Below are positions 4,262 through 15,302 of a stretch of DNA of 64,000 nucleotides, one piece after another; position 1 is the stretch's first letter; each line of letters starts with the position of its first letter. The notes beneath the pieces are model-generated. The model saw only the letters and a program-made list of their open reading frames with translations. It made no database searches and was not told the DNA's origin. Both the position numbers and the translations under genes were made by a program. Source of the stretch: an uncultured Methylomirabilota bacterium (GTDB lineage Bacteria; Methylomirabilota; Methylomirabilia; Methylomirabilales; 2-02-FULL-66-22); contig CAWJSJ010000001.1 of assembly GCA_963845565.1 (NCBI GenBank), forward strand, positions 448,001 to 512,000, written 5' to 3'.

Positions 4262-5059
4262 ATGGGCCTCCCGCCCGGCGTGGTCGGCGTCCGCTTCGCC
4301 CTGCCGCTGGTTTCGGGGCACTTCATCCGACGGCTGAATCGCTTTGCGGCCCTGGTCCGGGTGCAGGGGCGGGACGAGCGGGTCCACGTGCGGAACTCGG
4401 GGCGGCTGCGGGAATTGCTGACACCCGGTCGTCGTGTTCTCCTGGAGCCGGCGCGCGGCGACGGGCGGCGGACTCGGTTCACGCTGGCGCTGGTACGCCT
4501 GGCGTGTGGCTACGTCTCCGCCGATGCCCACCTGCCCAACGCGCTGGTGGAGGCGGGGTTGCGGCGGAACGCGGTGCCGGGGTGCCGCGGCTACCGGTTT
4601 CTGCGCCGGGAACCGGTCATGGGCCGAAACCGGGCGGACTTCCTCCTGGCACGGGGGGACGCGCGCTGCCTGGTCGAGGTCAAGTCGGTGACCCTGGTCG
4701 AGGAAGGTCTCGCGCTTTTTCCGGACGCCCCCACGGCACGCGGCCGCGTTCACCTCGAGCACCTGATCTCGGCACGCGGCCGGGGCGCGCTGGCCGTGGT
4801 TCTCTTCGTGATCCAGCGGAGCGATGCCACGGCTCTCGCGCCGAACTGGACAACGGATCCGGCATTTGCCGCCGCACTGACGCGGGCGAGACAGGCCGGC
4901 GTGCGGATCCGGGCGATGACCTGTCGCGTCACACGGGCCGGCGTGTGGCTCGCCGGGTCCGTGCCGGTGCGTTTCCGCGCTGGGAGTGGTTCGCCTGTCG
5001 GCAACCCCGTCCTGTGCGTGAAAGAGGTTGACACTAGAGCGCTCCGCCGACTAGGGTAG
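4262..5059 (+). CDS. sfsA: DNA/RNA nuclease SfsA (sugar fermentation stimulation protein)
   Basis: FIRRLNRF, HVRNSGRLRELL, RADFLL, VEVKSVTL, FPDAPTARG..HL, LFVIQR motifs. Confidence 0.92.
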   Translation: MGLPPGVVGVRFALPLVSGHFIRRLNRFAALVRVQGRDERVHVRNSGRLRELLTPGRRVLLEPARGDGRRTRFTLALVRLACGYVSADAHLPNALVEAGLRRNAVPGCRGYRFLRREPVMGRNRADFLLARGDARCLVEVKSVTLVEEGLALFPDAPTARGRVHLEHLISARGRGALAVVLFVIQRSDATALAPNWTTDPAFAAALTRARQAGVRIRAMTCRVTRAGVWLAGSVPVRFRAGSGSPVGNPVLCVKEVDTRALRRLG

Positions 5060-5071
5060 GCTGTTGTCAAC
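5027..5071. promoter_or_regulatory. Possible sigma70 promoter (TTGACA-N18-TAGGGT) within a GTTGACA...TGTCAAC inverted repeat
   Basis: GTTGACA at 5027-5033, TAGGGT at 5052-5057, TGTCAAC at 5065-5071. Confidence 0.35.
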
Positions 5072-5121
5072 GAAGATCCAAATAATGGCCAACCTATTTC
5101 GTAACGGCTCCTAAGCGCTCG

Positions 5122-5670
5122 ATGCGGGACAGCGTGGCGGGACGGACGGCGACAACGCGAGGCGGGACGGCAGTTCGGGTCCCGCGACTCTGGCCGATAG
5201 TCGGCATCCTGGCGACTCCGGTGGCCCTCGGGCTGGGGGTCTTCCTCCGCCGGTACCGGGGGGCGGATCGCACGGCCATGGCGCTGGGGGTTCTGGTCGG
5301 CGCTGGGATTTGTCTCGTCGTAGGTCTGGCCTGGTTTCAGCGCCGATTCGGCGGGACGAAAATGGACCGCCAGAGGTTGCGCTGGACGGGATTTCGCGTT
5401 GGGGCGATCGCGGGTGGCTGCGCGGGCGGCATCGGCGTGGTCCTCTTGGCGGTGCGGTGGGCCATCGATCAACTGGGCGGTCCCGTCGGTGAGCAGTTCG
5501 GCCCGGCGTTCCTGCGTGCGCTGCTGGCCCTCTGGTGGAAGACCCTTCCGGGTCTGCCGGCGTACCTGGCTGCCGGCATCGTGCTGGGAGGTGTGCTGGG
5601 ACTGGGCGTCGCCGAGGCGATCGGGGCCTGCGCGCGCCGAATCCCCAGCGAGGCACCCCGGGAAAAGTAG
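5122..5670 (+). CDS. Hypothetical membrane protein (~4 TM)
   Basis: Four Gly/Leu/Val-rich hydrophobic segments. Fills the gap between sfsA and the SEC-C gene. Start uncertain. Confidence 0.55.
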   Translation: MRDSVAGRTATTRGGTAVRVPRLWPIVGILATPVALGLGVFLRRYRGADRTAMALGVLVGAGICLVVGLAWFQRRFGGTKMDRQRLRWTGFRVGAIAGGCAGGIGVVLLAVRWAIDQLGGPVGEQFGPAFLRALLALWWKTLPGLPAYLAAGIVLGGVLGLGVAEAIGACARRIPSEAPREK

Positions 5671-5751
5671 CGGTTCTCCGGGTTTTTGATGAGTTCGCCG
5701 CGCGTCGTTGCCGCGCCGGTCGCGATCGCTCCCGTATAAGGATGACTTACG

Positions 5752-7158
5752 TTGTCAACCGTCCGGCTCCAGCGTCATGCCCCGTGTCCCTGCGGAAGCC
5801 TCCGCGCGCTCGCCGACTGCTGTCTGCCCTGGGAAGAGGCATTCCGACGCCTGGTCGCACGCCTGGCCGCGTTCGCCGCCGCGCCCACCGCGCGCCGGCT
5901 TGAGGGGCGCGCCGCGGCCGTGTTCTGGAATATCGAAGCACCCGACGACACCCCCCACGGCCGCAGCGCCGGGAGTGACGCCTGCTTTGCCGAATGGTTC
6001 CTGCACGACTACGTCGCACCGAAGCGAACGGGTCCGCTGCTGGGGGAGTTCGCCGACGGGGCGGACGGTTTGATCGGTCGCGAAGAGCGGTTGCTCTTCT
6101 CCATGCTGCTCACACCAATTCGAGCCTTCGAGATCGCGGAACCCCCGGGTCCTCGGGGGGTGGCAGTGAAGGATCTGTTGGCGGGATCCGAATGGGTGCT
6201 GGGGCCGCTCGGGGTGCCGGATGGGTTGATCCGGTCCGACGTGTGTATCGGTCGGCTGCTCCCGGTCGGGCGACTCGGGCGGCCCGGGATCGGCCTGCTC
6301 AGGCTTCCGCCGGGAAGTCAAGGGGAGTTGATGGCCTATCTCCGCGCCACCTACCGGTTGTCGCGGGCCGGCCGGCACGTGTCGCTGGAGGATTACGCCG
6401 ACAGGGCGGGGCACCTGTATCACCATTTTTTTCTCGATCGCGGACGAGAACTGGGTGGGCGCGCCCACCGCACCTGTCGATGGACGCCGTTCATCGCCGG
6501 ACAGATCCGGTACCGCGGGGACGAGACAGCGCGTATCCGGGCGGCGTTGAATCGCCAGCCCGAACTCGAACCGGTGACGGACTGGGAGGACGGAGCACGC
6601 TACCTCTGGCTGGACCCGGTGCAAGGCGTGACAGCGGGGACGGTTTGGTTTCGAGGGGACGAGATTCAAGCGTCTGCCGAGACCGAGGAGGATCTGGGAC
6701 GACTGGGCGGATTCCTCGAGTTGTGCTTGCGCGGTCTGGTGCGGCGAGAGCCGGCGGAAGCCGCGCCCACCGCACCCGTTGCTCCGGCAAGTGCGGCGCG
6801 ACACGGGGCGGGGTCGGCAGGAGCGGTCTTCATCCGGGGGTTCTTGGAGCGTTGGCCGGAGATGGCGTCGCCGACGCTCTCCGACGAGACCCCGCGGGAG
6901 GCGTGCCGATCGGCGGCCGGCCGCGAGGCGGTGGTCCAGCTGCTTCTTGGGCTCGAGCGGGACATGGCGCGCCAGAAGCGGCTCGACCGGGCGTGGGGCG
7001 AGATCGGACCGCTCTGGGAACGACTGAGCCTGTCGCCCCCGCCTCCGCAGCACGGATCAGCGGGCGAGGAGCGCGTGCCGTCGGTGACGCCACACCCGAG
7101 GTCGTCAAAACCGAGTGGTGACGGGCGGGCGGGCGGTCGGGCGTCGAAACGGACGTGA
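5752..7158 (+). CDS. SEC-C metal-binding motif protein
   Basis: N-terminal RHAPCPCGS....DCC (SEC-C/SecA C-terminal motif), F.EWF..DY motif, C-terminal W....PTL.DETPRE segment. Confidence 0.7.
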   Translation: MSTVRLQRHAPCPCGSLRALADCCLPWEEAFRRLVARLAAFAAAPTARRLEGRAAAVFWNIEAPDDTPHGRSAGSDACFAEWFLHDYVAPKRTGPLLGEFADGADGLIGREERLLFSMLLTPIRAFEIAEPPGPRGVAVKDLLAGSEWVLGPLGVPDGLIRSDVCIGRLLPVGRLGRPGIGLLRLPPGSQGELMAYLRATYRLSRAGRHVSLEDYADRAGHLYHHFFLDRGRELGGRAHRTCRWTPFIAGQIRYRGDETARIRAALNRQPELEPVTDWEDGARYLWLDPVQGVTAGTVWFRGDEIQASAETEEDLGRLGGFLELCLRGLVRREPAEAAPTAPVAPASAARHGAGSAGAVFIRGFLERWPEMASPTLSDETPREACRSAAGREAVVQLLLGLERDMARQKRLDRAWGEIGPLWERLSLSPPPPQHGSAGEERVPSVTPHPRSSKPSGDGRAGGRASKRT

Positions 7159-7192
7159 CGGAGTTGTTTGTATTCATCAGAGGAGAGGTCGC

Positions 7193-7492
7193 ATGGATCC
7201 AGTTCAAGAAGGAGTCGGGGGCGACCCGACGGCGTTCCAGCAACAGGTCGAGGCCGCCTTGGCCAAGGTCCGCCCGGCACTGCAGGCGGATGGGGGCGAC
7301 ATCGTGCTGGTGGCGGTGGATGGGCAGGACGCCCGGGTGCGCCTGAAGGGCGCTTGCCACGGGTGACCAGGCGCTCAGCGGACACTCCAGTTCGGAGTGC
7401 AGCGTTTTCTGCAGCACGAGGTGCCGGGCTTCGGGCGCGTGATCGACGACGCGGAGAACGACGAAGAAGACGAGTGGATTAAGCGGATGTGA
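7193..7492 (+). CDS. NifU/Nfu C-terminal domain protein, probable selenoprotein (GACHG-U-P)
   Basis: RBS AGGAGAGG at 7181-7188, ATG 7193. VRPALQADGGDI.LV...V.LKGACHG, then TGA (7364-7366), then PGAQRTLQFGVQRFL..EVP continues the Nfu fold. SECIS-like hairpin downstream. Confidence 0.8.
7371..7405 (+). promoter_or_regulatory. Candidate bacterial SECIS element
   Basis: Upper stem CACTCC(7383-88)/GGAGTG(7394-99). Loop AGUUC with G at position 2, starting 22 nt after the UGA. Lower stem CGCT/AGCG. Confidence 0.65.
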
Positions 7493-8342
7493 CGGGACCG
7501 GCGGCGCCTTCGGACGGCGAGGCCTCGTGGGTGTGGCTGTGTGCCACGGCGGGGTGGTCGTGCTCGTGCTCGTGCCAGAGGCCTTCGTGCGCGTGGCGGT
7601 GACGATGGATCAAGTTGGCCGCCCGGAGGATTGTCCGGTTCTGTAGGATGCGCTCGGGAGGATCGGAGGCGAGAATGCGCCGGTCCTCTCCGAACACCAC
7701 CACCCGGCCGGCGATCTCGGGGACGATGTGAAGGTCGTTGGTGGAGGTGACGACGGTTTTCCCCTGCGCCTGCGCCTCCAAGATAAGATCCACCAGGATC
7801 CGGCTGCTCCGGGGGTCCAGACCCGCCGTGGGCTCGTCGAGCAAGAGGACCTGCGGATCCACCGCCAACATCGCGGCCAAGGCGACCTTCTTTTTCTCGC
7901 CCCCCGAGAGCGCAAACGGGGGGCGCTCCGCCAGTCCACGCAGACCGAACCGGTCCAAACCCTCCTGCATCTTCCGGCGCACGGCGTCCGGCGGATCGTT
8001 GAACTGAAGGGGCCCGAAGGCGATCTCGTCCTCGACGGTCGGATTGAAGAGTTGGGCGTCCACATTCTGGAACAGGACGCCGACCTCCTTTCGGAAGAAC
8101 ATCCCAAAGGGATCGCGGGAGAGGAGGGACTCGGTGATCTCCCGTCCGAAAGCCCGATAGCTCCCCTGCTGGGCGAAGAGGAGTCCTGCGAGGAGTTTGA
8201 GCAGGGTGGTCTTTCCGCAGCCGTTCGCCCCCAGCAGGACCACCCGCTCCCCGGTGTCGACCGTCAAAGAGATGCCCGCCAGCGCCGGGATGTCCGGTGC
8301 ATACGCGTAGCAGGCCGAATCCACTTCCAAAAGCACAGACAT
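7479..8342 (-). CDS. nikO: ECF-type Ni/Co transporter ATPase (NikO/CbiO) with His-rich C-terminal tail
   Basis: GANGCGKT, LFQN.D.QLF.PTV.DEIAFGP, LSGGEKKK, LLLDEP. Tail HRHRHAHEGLWHEHEHDH. Start taken at MSVLLEV. Confidence 0.88.
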   Translation of the reverse strand: MSVLLEVDSACYAYAPDIPALAGISLTVDTGERVVLLGANGCGKTTLLKLLAGLLFAQQGSYRAFGREITESLLSRDPFGMFFRKEVGVLFQNVDAQLFNPTVEDEIAFGPLQFNDPPDAVRRKMQEGLDRFGLRGLAERPPFALSGGEKKKVALAAMLAVDPQVLLLDEPTAGLDPRSSRILVDLILEAQAQGKTVVTSTNDLHIVPEIAGRVVVFGEDRRILASDPPERILQNRTILRAANLIHRHRHAHEGLWHEHEHDHPAVAHSHTHEASPSEGAAGPVTSA

Positions 8343-8371
8343 TGGATGCCATCTCCCCTTCGTGAACGGGA

Positions 8372-9301
8372 TCAGGCGAAGTGCGCTCCGCCGCAGAGGG
8401 CGGCAACCAGCGCCACACATGCCCAATCCCGTAGCGCCAGCGGGCGTCCGGTGGGAACGCGGAACTCGCCCGTGAAGCCGCGCGCCGTCATCGCATCGGT
8501 GACCTCGGTCATCAAGTGGAGGCTCTTCTCCCAGGCGGCGGCGATGCGCGATCCCACCCACATCTGATCCGAGGCGAGCGGCCCCCGACAGATCGTCCGG
8601 CTCTTCTTGCCGAGATGGACCTCCTCTGACTGTCGGAGGAGCAGGTGCAGATAGCGGACGGCCATCCCGGCCGTGCACAGGAAGACGGCCGGGATGCGGA
8701 GCGACCGCAGGGAAGCGAGCAGGGCGGTCCAGCGCGTGGACAGCGTCAGGCACAAGACGGCGGTCACCGAGGCCAGTGTGCGGAGGAGGAACGTCGTCGC
8801 CGTGAGGAGGCCCTCGGCGCTGACGCCGATCGACGCCGGGATGGCATACGGGCCCAGCTGCCGGTCCGTGTCGAAGCGCAGGATGGGCAGGAAGACCTGA
8901 CCGCCGCTCGTCAGGTTGAGGGTGGCAGGGAGGGCCATCAGGGTCGAAAAGAGGAGAGCGATCAGGAGGCCGGCCCCCAGGATCTCGCGTGGGCGGATTC
9001 GCGAGGCGAGGACCGCGGCTGCGGCGAGCACGGCGTGTGCGGCCAGCGCGGGGAGAGAGGCCGCGAGGCTCGTGCTGACCAAGAAGAGCAGGGTGGCCAG
9101 CAGACGGGCACGCGGGTCCACTTGCTGCATGATCCCGGGCCGCCGGGCGATCTCCTCGCGGAGGTGGGCCTCGGCGAACACGGAGGCCAGCCGGCGCAGC
9201 GTCCGGTCGAGGTACCGGGTGCGGGGCGGCCGAAGTCCTCTGGCCTGCAGCGTCTCGAAAAACTGGCGCTCGCGCGGCGGAACCGTTCTGGGGTCCCTCA
9301 A
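8372..9301 (-). CDS. nikQ: ECF transporter T component (NikQ/CbiQ)
   Basis: QQVDPRARL, L..L.SLRIP, RYL, KKSR, AMTARGF motifs. Probable TTG start overlaps the upstream TGA. Confidence 0.85.
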   Translation of the reverse strand: MRDPRTVPPRERQFFETLQARGLRPPRTRYLDRTLRRLASVFAEAHLREEIARRPGIMQQVDPRARLLATLLFLVSTSLAASLPALAAHAVLAAAAVLASRIRPREILGAGLLIALLFSTLMALPATLNLTSGGQVFLPILRFDTDRQLGPYAIPASIGVSAEGLLTATTFLLRTLASVTAVLCLTLSTRWTALLASLRSLRIPAVFLCTAGMAVRYLHLLLRQSEEVHLGKKSRTICRGPLASDQMWVGSRIAAAWEKSLHLMTEVTDAMTARGFTGEFRVPTGRPLALRDWACVALVAALCGGAHFA

Positions 9302-9633
9302 CGGGTCCCCTTCGTCAGCCAGCGCGTCAGGACGTAGGCGCCCCCCCCGCACAGGCCGACGCCGACGAAAGCGGAGAGAACGTACGACAAGCTGCGATGA
9401 GCAAGCGGGGCCTCGTCCTGGCCCGGGAGCGCGTAATCCGGGATGGGGGCTTTCCAGAGATCTGACAGCCTCTCCATGCCCGAAGGGGCATACCCGATCA
9501 TCTGCCTCACCTCATCCAGGCCCCATTCGCCCCAGGCGCTGCCGGCGCGCAAAAGTTCCGGCAAATACAGCCCGATTGGGGAGAGCGCGGCCATCACGAG
9601 CAGGGCGACCCAGTACGGGCGGTACTCCTTCAT
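9298..9633 (-). CDS. NikN/PDGLE-like small membrane component
   Basis: LSPIGL...AWGEWG...PSGMERL..LWKAPIPDYALPG. ATGA overlap with nikM. Confidence 0.8.
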   Translation of the reverse strand: MKEYRPYWVALLVMAALSPIGLYLPELLRAGSAWGEWGLDEVRQMIGYAPSGMERLSDLWKAPIPDYALPGQDEAPLAHRSLSYVLSAFVGVGLCGGGAYVLTRWLTKGTR

Positions 9634-10322
9634 GGCGACACCTCGCCGCCGGCGGGTCGGAGGACCCAGGCCGACCGAGAGCCGTGGAGGTGATACACGA
9701 CCAGGGCGGTGAGCAGAGCCTCGACGAGGCCGAAGAGGAAAAGATGCTCCAGGACCATGACGGGGACCGTCACGGACAGGGGGTAGGGCGCGTACAGGGC
9801 CCGGCCATCGCCTGCCGTGTGGAGCCAGGGCTGGAGGCCGAACATCAGGGCGGTGGTGAAGGAGGCCGCCGTGAGGCCCAACCAACCGCCGATTCCCGCG
9901 GAGATCGCCTGCCCTTTGCGGGAGGGGAGGAGCCGGGACAGCACCCGGTATACGGCATAGCCCGTGAAGGGCATGACGAAGGCGATGTTCAGGCAATTGG
10001 CCCCGATCGCGGTGATCCCTCCGTCGCCGAACAGGAGGGCCTGGATGACCAGGGCGATACTTATGGCCAGCGCGGCGCCCCAGGGCCCCACGGCAACCGC
10101 GATCAGAACCCCACCGACGGCGTGGCCGGTGGTCGCGCCTGGAAGCGGGATGTTGAACATCATCACTAAGAACGAGAATGCCGCCGCAAGGGCCAGTAAC
10201 GGGGCGCGCCGCGCCGCCAGCGCCGTGCGGGCCTTGCGAGCGGCCAGGCCCCACAGGGGAATGCAAGCGGCGTACGTGGCGAGATAGGTGGGAGGACCGA
10301 GGTACCCATCCGGGATGTGCAT
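9630..10322 (-). CDS. nikM: ECF S component NikM/CbiM
   Basis: N-terminal MHIPDGYL (NikM-type), MMFNIPLPG.TTGHAVGG, IQALLFGDGGITAIGAN. Confidence 0.9.
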   Translation of the reverse strand: MHIPDGYLGPPTYLATYAACIPLWGLAARKARTALAARRAPLLALAAAFSFLVMMFNIPLPGATTGHAVGGVLIAVAVGPWGAALAISIALVIQALLFGDGGITAIGANCLNIAFVMPFTGYAVYRVLSRLLPSRKGQAISAGIGGWLGLTAASFTTALMFGLQPWLHTAGDGRALYAPYPLSVTVPVMVLEHLFLFGLVEALLTALVVYHLHGSRSAWVLRPAGGEVSP

Positions 10323-10346
10323 TGGGACTCCCTGCGGTGCGTCGGT

Positions 10347-10373
10347 ATGGCACCACGGTGCAGTTCGTGCCAC
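10347..10373. promoter_or_regulatory. Candidate NikR operator (TGGCAC-N13-GTGCCA)
   Basis: Perfect 6-bp inverted repeat with a 13-bp spacer in the nikR-nikM intergenic region. Confidence 0.55.
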
Positions 10374-10392
10374 CGCCGCAACAAAAAAAAGC

Positions 10393-10812
10393 TTACCCGA
10401 GCGCATGCCCTTCCGCGGTGGCGGAGAAGGTGCCGTGCTTGACGCCGCGCGTGCCGATGAGACGATCGGCGATCACTTTCAATTCGTTGGCCTTGCCCCG
10501 TAACACCAGGACCTCCAGGCAGTGGTGCGGATCGAGGTGCACGTGCAGCGTGGAGACAATAGTGCGGTAGTGCGCGTGCTGGAGGTCGGTGAGCTTATCC
10601 GCCAGTTCGCGCACCTCGTGGTTATACACCAACGTCAGCGTTCCCACCGTCTCGGCGGTCCCGAGATCCCACTGTTCCCGCACGAGACTTTCCCGGATCA
10701 GGTCCCGGAGGGCCTCCGACCGGTTGCTGTATCCCTTCCGGTGGATCAGCCGGTCAAACTGTTGCAGGAGCGGTTCTTCAAGCGACACGCCGAATCGGGT
10801 GACACCGGACAT
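10393..10812 (-). CDS. nikR: Nickel-responsive regulator NikR
   Basis: RFGVSL ribbon, NRSEA.RDLIR, LQH, HVHLD.HHCLEV Ni-binding motif. Confidence 0.95.
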   Translation of the reverse strand: MSGVTRFGVSLEEPLLQQFDRLIHRKGYSNRSEALRDLIRESLVREQWDLGTAETVGTLTLVYNHEVRELADKLTDLQHAHYRTIVSTLHVHLDPHHCLEVLVLRGKANELKVIADRLIGTRGVKHGTFSATAEGHALG

Positions 10813-13856: not shown

Positions 13857-15302
13857 ATGAGAGTGCTCCTGCTACGACCGGATCCCGGTAACGAGCGCTT
13901 CGGCCTGGGGCCGTTTTTTCGGGTGGAGCCGCTCGGCCTGGAGTACATCGGGGCGGCGCTCCGCGCTTGCGGCCACGAGCCGTGGATCGCGGATCTGCGG
14001 TTTCGTCCGGGCCTGGACACCTGGATCCGGCGCACCCGGCCCCAGTTGGTCGGCATCTCCTGCCTGCATTCACTCGAATACGACCGAGTGCGCGCGACCG
14101 CCCGGGCGGTCCGGCGGGCGGCGCCGGAGGCGTTCGTTCTGGTCGGGGGGCATGCGGCGGCGGCATTCCCGCGGCCGCTCGAATGCGACGAGGTTGATGC
14201 CATCTGCCTTGACGACGGCGAGGAGATCGTGCCGGCCCTGGTCGAGGCGATCGAGCGCGGTGCCCCCCTCGACATGCTGCCGGGGCTCCGACTGCGAATG
14301 GGCGGCGAGTGGCTCGCCACGCCTCCCCGGCCACGGCAGACCGGTCTGGATCTTGTACCCCTCCCGGCGCGCGACCTGGTCGAGCAACACCGGAATGGCT
14401 ATCACTGCCTGCTCTTCAAGCCGATCTGGCTGGTCGAGACGGCACGTGGCTGCCCGTATCGGTGCAGCTTTTGCTCGGTCTGGCAACTCTATGATCGTGC
14501 CTACCGGGAACGGTCCGTGGCGGCGGTGGCGGAGGACTTCGCCTCCGCCGGAGACGCCGTCTTCGTTGCGGACGACCTCTTCTGGCACCATCCGGCACGG
14601 AGCCGCGAACTCGCCGAGGCGCTCCGTAAACGTGGCGTGTCGAAGCGCTGGATCCTGGTGCAGACTCGGACCGACCTCATCTCGCGCCAGACGGAACTCC
14701 TCGAGGTGTGGCGGCCTCTGGCGAAGGATTTTGACATCTTCTTCGGGTTTGAGGCGGCCAGCGACGCCGGCCTCTCCCAGGTGGACAAAGACGCAGGGGT
14801 CGGGGCAAGCCTCGAGGCGGTGCGCATCGCCCGGTCCCTGGGTTACGGGGTCAACGGGAACTTCCTGATCGATCCCGACTGGACGGAGACCCATTTCGCG
14901 GAGCTGTGGGATTTCGTGGCGCGCCACGATCTCCGCCGGGCGGGATTCACCATCCTGACGCCGCTGCCGGGCACCGAATTTTTCGATCGGCTGGCCCCGC
15001 GGCTGGCGGGGCAGCCGTGGCATGCTTACGATATGCACCATCTGCTCTGGGAGCCGCGACTCGGCGCGCGGCGTTTCTTCGAGCTGTATGCCGAAACCTG
15101 GCGGCGATCCATCCTCAACGCGTCCGGAGACAAGACGTGGCTGGACTGGGTGCGGCAGGTGCGACCAACGATGGTACCGTATCTGCTGCGCGTGCTCTGG
15201 CGCACCCAGCGGATGATGAAACCCGAGGCCTACCTCGGCGAGTACCAGGCAACGAACCGGACGTGTCCCGGGTCTTCGAGCAGCGCCGGGGTCGCATCGT
15301 AG
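13857..15302 (+). CDS. B12-binding radical SAM protein (HpnR/BchE-like)
   Basis: EPLGLEYI, VGGHAA, GE (cobalamin-binding domain), ETARGCPYRCSFCSVW, TILTPLPGT. Confidence 0.9.
   Translation: MRVLLLRPDPGNERFGLGPFFRVEPLGLEYIGAALRACGHEPWIADLRFRPGLDTWIRRTRPQLVGISCLHSLEYDRVRATARAVRRAAPEAFVLVGGHAAAAFPRPLECDEVDAICLDDGEEIVPALVEAIERGAPLDMLPGLRLRMGGEWLATPPRPRQTGLDLVPLPARDLVEQHRNGYHCLLFKPIWLVETARGCPYRCSFCSVWQLYDRAYRERSVAAVAEDFASAGDAVFVADDLFWHHPARSRELAEALRKRGVSKRWILVQTRTDLISRQTELLEVWRPLAKDFDIFFGFEAASDAGLSQVDKDAGVGASLEAVRIARSLGYGVNGNFLIDPDWTETHFAELWDFVARHDLRRAGFTILTPLPGTEFFDRLAPRLAGQPWHAYDMHHLLWEPRLGARRFFELYAETWRRSILNASGDKTWLDWVRQVRPTMVPYLLRVLWRTQRMMKPEAYLGEYQATNRTCPGSSSSAGVAS

Follow-up and report, generated by a model that had tools for sequence, protein, structure and literature searches.

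The stretch of DNA analysed here (the window) comprises 64,000 nucleotides (nt) of contig CAWJSJ010000001.1 from an uncultured Methylomirabilota bacterium. At positions 7193-7492 it carries a small gene of the Nfu family, named nfu-Sec here, which has a TGA codon in frame at codon 58. It is almost certainly a real, mis-annotated selenoprotein gene that encodes a selenocysteine (Sec) variant of the Nfu iron-sulfur (Fe-S) carrier. The features of the gene, which include a hairpin resembling a selenocysteine insertion sequence (SECIS), are:

7180..7188, plus strand: ribosome-binding site GAGGAGAGG, read directly from the sequence, 4 nt ahead of the ATG at 7193
7193..7492, plus strand: coding sequence of nfu-Sec, with 99 codons, one of them for Sec, and the stop; a single NifU-C/Nfu domain
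7364..7366, plus strand: in-frame TGA, probably read as selenocysteine; codon 58, replacing the second Cys of GAC-x-x-C-P
7383..7399, plus strand: SECIS-like hairpin with a 6-bp stem, CACUCC (7383-7388)/GGAGUG (7394-7399), and loop AGUUC (7389-7393)
7490..7492, plus strand: true stop codon, also TGA; here the 3' end of nfu-Sec overlaps the end of the convergent cbiO open reading frame (ORF)

When the TGA is translated as Sec (U), the product has 99 residues: MDPVQEGVGGDPTAFQQQVEAALAKVRPALQADGGDIVLVAVDGQDARVRLKGACHGUPGAQRTLQFGVQRFLQHEVPGFGRVIDDAENDEEDEWIKRM. In most orthologues, too, a motif resembling GGAGG or GAGGAG stands ahead of the start codon chosen. The GC content around nfu-Sec is 66-70%.

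A preliminary description of this DNA had placed the TGA at the second Cys of the Nfu motif GACxxCP, had held that the frame beyond it completes a 99-residue Nfu domain, and had called the gene a hidden selenoprotein. The position of the codon is confirmed by the sequence, by the match to the Pfam NifU family PF01106 and by alignments to Protein Data Bank (PDB) entries, and the completed domain is confirmed by the translation with TGA as U and by the span of the PF01106 match. The selenoprotein reading as a whole is supported by the Sec machinery of the genome, Sec/Cys alternation among relatives, coding sequence conserved downstream of the TGA, independent assemblies and fragments in the protein databases.

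The PF01106 match covers residues 19-83, thereby spanning the TGA, and scores 80.3 bits against a cut-off of 27 (1.1e-22). Among PDB sequences the product matches 2z51 (the best, at 3.2e-17), 2jnv, 1xhj, 2m5o and 1veh, the last being a mouse protein. The alignments to 2z51, 2jnv and 1xhj set residue 58 opposite the second Cys of GAC-x-x-C-P. An AlphaFold2 model, for which a 58-row alignment was the input, has a mean predicted local distance difference test (pLDDT) score of 76.8 and places a helix at residues 12-32, strands at 36-43 and 46-52, the motif loop, a second helix at 59-76 and a strand at 83-85. The motif, G-A-C55-H-G-U58-P, sits at the start of the second helix. The top five Foldseek matches of the model in the PDB are all NifU-like, with E-values of 4.6e-7 to 6.7e-5 for 2z51, 2m5o, 2jnv and 1veh and of 6.1e-3 for 1th5. 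In nfu-Sec the cluster motif takes the form C-x-x-U; its first Cys and the residues on either side do not vary among the aligned sequences.

Selenocysteine machinery and the meaning of TGA

The genome from which the window comes is a 5.36-Mb assembly in 6 contigs, and it holds all of the Sec genes that the preliminary description had implied, namely selA, selB, the Sec transfer RNA (tRNA-Sec, selC) and selD. SelA is found at 494.5 bits and the wing domain of SelB at 68.4 bits. The tRNA-Sec scores 76.2 bits, has the anticodon TCA and shares a contig with selB, from which it lies about 2.4 kb downstream. The selD gene (342.6 bits; G000:C2:254715-255656) itself contains one in-frame TGA, so that the SelD of this genome is probably a selenoprotein too.

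Elsewhere in the window, TGA serves as an ordinary stop. The 29 long ORFs with high GC at third codon positions end in TGA (20), TAG (5) or TAA (4). Since TGA ends 20 of these 29 ORFs, and nfu-Sec itself, the codon is not reassigned genome-wide.

The UGA could instead be read through without Sec, either by a near-cognate Trp or Cys tRNA or by Cys-tRNA(Sec) under selenium scarcity. Cys does work at position 58 in close relatives, which leaves room for this explanation. Against it stand the complete Sec system of the genome and the SECIS-fitting hairpins, conserved at synonymous sites, that are described below. General read-through is unlikely, given that TGA is used as an ordinary stop more often than TAG or TAA in the window. 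We regard reading of the codon without Sec as very unlikely.

Conservation of the TGA codon in relatives and metagenomes

The preliminary description had named an assembly error at the TGA as one of the findings that would undo its reading, and independent assemblies keep the codon. It is unchanged in contigs from two other DNA studies, one of which matches 6958-7800 with 0 differences. In the other, which takes in all of the 901-nt stretch compared, the sole substitution is at 7483 and one base is missing at 7164, upstream of the gene. Contigs of two metatranscriptome libraries also span the unchanged TGA. The first covers 7223-7800 with 0 differences, and the second covers 7307-7486 with differences at 7405, 7450 and 7483, all of them third codon positions. 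An error for TGC or TGT would take only one base, and a database protein with Leu at this site means that variants do exist. With the same TGA present in the contigs of two DNA studies, of two RNA libraries and in many independent metagenome contigs, an error can be virtually discounted.

Orthologues were sought by six-frame search of 41 genomes, that is, the window's own and 40 relatives, and a match was found in 35. The codon at the Sec site was parsed by a motif script for the 20 best orthologue rows (L018-L037), as follows:

TGA: 14 rows, 13 of them in the window's genus (the window included) and 1 in another family of the same order
TGC: 2 rows, in the window's genus
TGT: 3 rows, in the window's genus
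Unparsed: 1 row (L036), from the unpublished genome G028, listed without an internal stop

The genome G028 contributes only this "no stop" row and one row without a SelA match, and the conclusions are independent of both. Alternation between TGA and Cys codons had been expected in the preliminary description, together with conserved coding downstream, and both are seen. The converse, that all close orthologues carry Cys, is contradicted by the 14 TGA rows. In the family tree (142 unique rows, 60 columns), three Cys lineages fall within the Sec forms of the clade that holds the window. On this tree, which is too short for counting the origins of Sec and Cys, parsimony calls for at least 10 changes between the two, and well-supported branches force only 1.

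Downstream of the Sec codon, the residues P/S-x-A-x-x-T-L-x-x-G-V-x-x-F-L-x-x-E-V-P-G-F-G are kept in 19 of 19 parsed rows. Among the 14 Sec forms, pairwise differences at first, second and third codon positions number 466, 288 and 1247 over the 30 codons before the TGA and 475, 386 and 942 over the 26 codons after it. The excess at third positions on both sides means that both halves of the gene evolve as coding sequence.

At E<=1e-12, this stand-alone Nfu occurs in 25 of 251 genomes of the phylum, and all but one of these carriers belong to the window's order; the largest family has 0 in 159. A protein 98% identical to that of the window was also found (L039) in a record titled "uncultured Bacteroidales bacterium", a label that is probably wrong, given the GC content around the window's gene.

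A scan of species genomes with peptide patterns that included KGACHGCP, and were therefore biased toward Cys forms, returned at least 43 loci. Two of those listed have TGA, and both belong to the group of the window; the other 41, which come from many phyla, have TGC or TGT. Metagenome contigs were scanned for DGGD followed, after a gap of 45-60 nt, by G-A-C-x-G-TGA-CC. This yielded at least 121 loci, of which at least 109 are in frame; among the matches listed, 81 have an in-frame gap of 48 nt, 27 have one of 51 nt and a single locus has one of 54 nt. The remaining 12, with gaps of 47, 53 or 58 nt, look like chance. In nearly all of the in-frame loci, the sequence past the TGA encodes the rest of an Nfu domain, its second half. 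The exceptions, judged by eye, are L131 and L191, and six further loci are cut by contig ends. Three clades and some single loci can be distinguished, each clade with a hairpin of its own:

Clade A: the window's high-GC group; hairpin CACUCC/GGAGUG, spacing 21-23
Clade B: low GC, ...KGACGGUPMSQMTLTRGVE...; hairpin (CUUU)GACCC-GUG-GGGUC(GAGG), spacing 25
Clade C: low GC, 17-residue spacer, ...KGACGGUPGATITLKQGIERVLKQ...; hairpin UUGAGC-GGNU-GCUCAA, spacing 37
Single divergent metagenome loci: L095, L120, L124, L137, L141

One clade B locus, L195, has two in-frame TGA codons in its motif, G-A-C-U-G-U-P, and is either a double-Sec variant or an error. The TGA at codon 58 lies far beyond chance; it recurs there in 14 of the 20 best rows and in at least 109 in-frame metagenome loci.

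These comparisons also bear on the proposal that the TGA is a true stop, which would leave a pseudogene or a 57-residue fragment followed by a decaying remnant. Gene callers do end the protein at this codon. In a collection of 5.8 billion proteins, 50 of the best 120 relatives are fragments of 56-58 residues that end in ...GACHG and that, where named, are called "Fe-S cluster biogenesis protein NfuA" or "NifU-like protein". The preliminary description had foreseen that annotation pipelines would treat the gene as truncated, and these fragments in public protein sets bear it out. A decaying remnant fits poorly with substitutions that concentrate at third codon positions after the TGA just as they do before it, and with a TGA that is kept, with the C-terminal half intact, in 14 rows from relatives and at least 109 in-frame metagenome loci of divergent clades. 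In addition, half of the modelled fold would be missing from a product of 57 residues. A true stop is therefore most improbable.

The SECIS-like hairpin and the weight of the evidence

The loop of the hairpin at 7383-7399 lies 22 nt after the UGA and has G at its second position followed by U; the predicted energy is -7.9 kcal/mol. In the account of the bacterial SECIS (bSECIS) model drawn from PMC13188914, the loop has 3-9 nt, the stem has 4-16 bp and G stands in one of the first two loop positions, the distance from the UGA is 16-37 nt, and the minimum free energy is -7.5 kcal/mol or lower. The hairpin of the window agrees with the model on every one of these points. The preliminary description was therefore exact on the geometry and on the fit to the model. 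The weight that it gave to the hairpin in the window by itself has to be lowered, for reasons given below.

Conservation among relatives gives the hairpin its support. It is kept in 14 of 14 Sec forms. Its arms are built from the codons of Thr64-Leu65 and Gly68-Val69, and in these Sec forms the arm codons are ACA (9/14), CTC (14/14), GGA (12/14) and GTG (14/14). Among the 12,451 codons counted in the window, ACA makes up 5.4% of Thr codons and GGA 15.8% of Gly codons, so that both are rare there. Sec forms that have ACG, ACT, ACC, GGC or GGG instead still pair, either through G-U or in a shifted register. The three TGT forms encode the same T-L-Q-A-G-V, but their Gly codon is GGT or GGC, and its wobble base disrupts the stem.

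A broader comparison took in 171 parsed loci (122 TGA, 27 TGT and 22 TGC), which reduce to 153 unique segments of 63 nt. Among the matches listed, a perfect-stem hairpin of the model geometry at -6 kcal/mol or below is present in 91 of 104 Sec forms and 8 of 49 Cys forms, figures that overstate independence, as both sets come from biased pattern scans and three clades dominate them. The comparison is one of a handful of independent lineages, not of 104. At -7.5 kcal/mol or below, the same comparison gives 55 Sec forms and 5 Cys forms among the matches listed. When the Cys forms from other phyla are taken separately, a model-fitting hairpin at -6 kcal/mol or below occurs in 2 of the 40 listed. 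A search of 7100-7600 against Rfam, with E up to 10, gave three chance-level matches and no SECIS family.

Several observations weigh against the reading of nfu-Sec as a selenoprotein gene. Within the window, RNAfold on 7355-7430 (76 nt) gives z = -0.71, which is uninformative in DNA of 68% GC. When the 25 codons after the TGA were recoded synonymously with the codon usage of the window, and a hairpin was accepted anywhere in the allowed range, an equally good model-fitting hairpin appeared in 344 of 2000 recodings. The hairpin is thus insignificant on the window alone, and its support, drawn from sequence, is comparative. It also fails to separate Sec from Cys cleanly, in that the two TGC forms of the genus retain it.

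Other points of this kind concern the genomes and the databases. There is no contrast in machinery between Sec and Cys forms. SelA is found in 35 of the 41 genomes, in carriers of either form alike. All of the Sec-form genomes among the relatives have it, bar one that is 68% complete, and of five Cys-form holders from other phyla, four have it at strong scores and one as a weak match. Since it is present with both forms, SelA cannot discriminate them. The exact TGA pattern was absent from all 401 genomes sampled from the phylum of one Cys-form holder (record title: Thermodesulfobacteriota), a phylum rich in selenoproteins. A near-identical protein of 99 residues, P0003, reads GACHGLPGAQ, with Leu in place of Sec. 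Its contig measures 1.4 kb, and it could represent either a real TGA-to-TTA variant or a sequencing error. The contigs from RNA libraries are no proof of transcription because such libraries can contain DNA. Confidence in the structural model is moderate, and the motif block, residues 51-60, is the lowest of the structured blocks, at pLDDT 69. Finally, selenium in the protein, its dimerisation and its clients are all inferred, and the binding of a cluster by Cys and Sec is argued from homology.

When these points are set against the conserved codon, the downstream coding and the Sec genes, nfu-Sec is still, with high probability, a genuine selenoprotein. Pseudogene, read-through without Sec and sequencing error remain improbable even when they are taken jointly.

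Proposed function, known systems and gene neighbourhood

We consider it likely, with good confidence, that 7193-7492 is an intact stand-alone Nfu gene in which UGA58 specifies Sec; the most likely function of its product would be that of a late-acting Fe-S carrier. By the established bacterial pathway, SelB carrying Sec-tRNA(Sec) would bind the hairpin at 7383-7399 downstream of the UGA and deliver Sec to the ribosome at UGA58, and translation would then continue to the real stop at 7490. In Nfu proteins of the Cys type, the two motif cysteines of each of two subunits hold a labile bridging cluster, which is handed to apo-proteins. By homology, C55 and U58 of two subunits may hold a labile [4Fe-4S] or [2Fe-2S] cluster that is passed on in the same way. 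The bridging cluster would have two thiolate and two selenolate ligands. From this analogy we lean, with some caution, toward Sec acting as a cluster ligand in a carrier.

The protein might also be a genuine selenoprotein in which C-x-x-U serves redox chemistry, alternating between selenenylsulfide and selenol/thiol forms, and does not act as a cluster ligand. As such it might reduce disulfides on apo-clients or handle selenium or sulfur. Many uncharacterised selenoproteins with UxxC or CxxU are probably redox proteins (PMC13188914), and in the AlphaFold2 model the motif lies at a helix N-terminus, as in thioredoxin-like CxxC sites. A redox role sits less easily with the conservation of the whole Nfu domain, including G53, A54, G57, P59, T64, L65 and G68, between nfu-Sec and the cluster-carrying Cys forms, or with the exchange of Sec and Cys within one genus without any other change in the motif. 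The gene for a multi-cluster radical SAM/SPASM protein directly upstream in some relatives also fits a cluster donor better. A purely redox function, the main alternative, is a reasonable but less likely reading.

As a cluster carrier, nfu-Sec would be an addition to the ordinary Fe-S apparatus of the cell. The genome also encodes a Cys-type NifU, with a BFD-like part and a NifU C-domain bearing C-A-G-C, next to a 406-residue NifS-like cysteine desulfurase (G000:C2:2055463-2058690; L038). This is the ordinary scaffold pair of the genome, and its presence makes the Sec-Nfu an additional stand-alone carrier and not the only scaffold.

The closest known relatives are the Nfu proteins of the Cys type (PF01106), which include Arabidopsis CnfU/NFU2 (2z51), rice proteins (2jnv and 1th5), a staphylococcal protein (1xhj) and human NFU1 (2m5o). 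They have the same fold and motif position and share DGGD, G-A-C-x-G-x-P and T-L-x-x-G with the nfu-Sec product. The latter differs in having UGA (Sec) for the second motif Cys and a SECIS-like hairpin within the coding sequence. It also lacks an N-terminal A-type or NFU1-N domain and, in the window's clade, ends in the acidic tail DDAENDEEDEWIKRM. NFU1/Nfu1 proteins are described as late-acting [4Fe-4S] carriers in passages of PMC7261492 and PMC5014551. NfuA (TIGR03341/NF008392) and NifU proper (TIGR02000) share the C-terminal NifU domain and have extra domains that are missing in nfu-Sec. The NCBIfam scores of the nfu-Sec product fall far below the cut-offs of all three models (34.3 against 269.35 for TIGR03341, 24.1 against 268 for NF008392 and 54.2 against 273.3 for TIGR02000). 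These three general matches were all that the NCBIfam search gave, and no selenoprotein model was matched.

Among selenoproteins, the HesB-like selenoprotein (TIGR01911) is a Sec form of an A-type Fe-S carrier, has been verified experimentally and has the motif UxGP (PMC13188914). It is a precedent for Sec in a small Fe-S trafficking protein, although it belongs to the unrelated HesB/IscA fold and family, and the nfu-Sec product has no match to TIGR01911. In the CxxU selenoproteins (SelW-like, AhpD-like, GrdA and HdrA; PMC13188914), Sec likewise stands second in the motif, and the folds differ.

A Sec-type Nfu was sought in the literature. No NifU, Nfu or PF01106 family is among the 119 selenoprotein families and subfamilies in Table 1 of the 2026 catalogue (PMC13188914), where the nearest entry is the unrelated HesB-like carrier. 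A term search of the 2022 review PMC9312934 found no NifU/Nfu, and neither the supplement of the deep-Sep paper nor that of the GOS paper contains it. A full-text literature search, which left subscription-only papers and bioRxiv supplements outside its reach, returned nothing relevant on a Sec-type NifU/Nfu. Sec-Nfu is thus a selenoprotein family missing from the current catalogue. To this the window adds a clade of the Methylomirabilota type that has a distinct hairpin, a genus in which Sec, TGC and TGT forms make up a series, and a conserved SEC-C/DUF7986 neighbour.

As the family is both mis-annotated and uncatalogued, selenoproteome counts and reconstructions of Fe-S pathways in wetland and sediment bacteria are incomplete. 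Sec-Nfu would also bring Nfu-mediated Fe-S trafficking onto the short list of processes that use selenium, and a natural Sec in the Nfu cluster motif would give a handle on the ligand chemistry that controls the uptake and release of clusters. The genus series, which runs from Sec through TGC with the hairpin to TGT without it, is useful for the study of how Sec codons and SECIS elements are gained and lost.

A bolder reading, offered tentatively and more apt to prove wrong than right, would make Sec-Nfu the first bacterial Fe-S delivery selenoprotein whose selenolate ligands were selected to tune a transient cluster, for example through faster ligand exchange or resistance to irreversible oxidation, and which works in a fixed two-gene module. 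The partner would be the upstream SEC-C/DUF7986 protein or, in some relatives, the TIGR04053 radical SAM/SPASM enzyme. If this were true, the module would be a dedicated, selenium-dependent maturation route for particular clients.

The neighbours of nfu-Sec in the window are:

5752..7158, plus strand: up468, a protein of 468 residues that ends 35 nt before nfu-Sec; no Pfam family beyond a borderline SEC-C
7479-10406, minus strand: cbiM-cbiQ-cbiO, an ECF-type cobalt/nickel transporter operon convergent to nfu-Sec
7479-8753, minus strand: the cbiO ORF, which overlaps the last 14 nt of nfu-Sec

Past the cbi operon come a MarR/GNAT gene and an EamA gene, and then a B12-radical-SAM and lipid cluster that starts at 13857. 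The preliminary description had seen the gene as close to a cluster with very high Fe-S demand. This link is weak, with the first radical-SAM gene, at 13857, about 6.4 kb from nfu-Sec and behind the cbi, MarR/GNAT and EamA genes.

Several relatives have, immediately ahead of nfu, a radical SAM/SPASM gene of the TIGR04053 family (480.6 bits, cut-off 395). The nfu gene is of the Sec form at L024/L040 and of the Cys form at L029 and L030, in the genus, and at L084, in another order. The TIGR04053 gene spans 4549-5916 at L040 (the same as 46-1410 at L024). This adjacency in relatives hints that Nfu may have a specific client. For the window itself a radical-SAM link was rejected. TIGR04053 is not adjacent there, and the closest homologue in the genome, 49% identical, lies on another contig (G000:C2:704812-705906). 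The gene was found in 0 of the at least 109 in-frame metagenome flanks.

The more constant neighbour is on the upstream side, where an ABC transporter, sfsA, a 182-residue membrane protein and up468 precede nfu-Sec on the same strand. The SEC-C motif of up468 (CPCGS...CC, residues 10-26 near the N-terminus) is borderline, at 20.1 bits against a cut-off of 20.4. In the language-model features of the ESM Atlas, up468 groups with hypothetical SEC-C + DUF7986 proteins of about 460 residues from many phyla. At 12 of 19 loci of relatives, up468 immediately precedes nfu and has the same orientation, and a 13th has a partial match further off. Its C-terminus is directly upstream in 27 of the at least 109 in-frame metagenome loci, and 26 of these 27 are among the 42 loci that a rule assigned to clade A. 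The SEC-C-motif protein up468 is thus the conserved neighbour of nfu-Sec in the genus and in high-GC metagenome loci. In the 35-nt spacer between the two genes, just past the up468 stop codon, at window positions 7162-7164, the contigs of two other studies are each one base shorter, which may represent strain variation.

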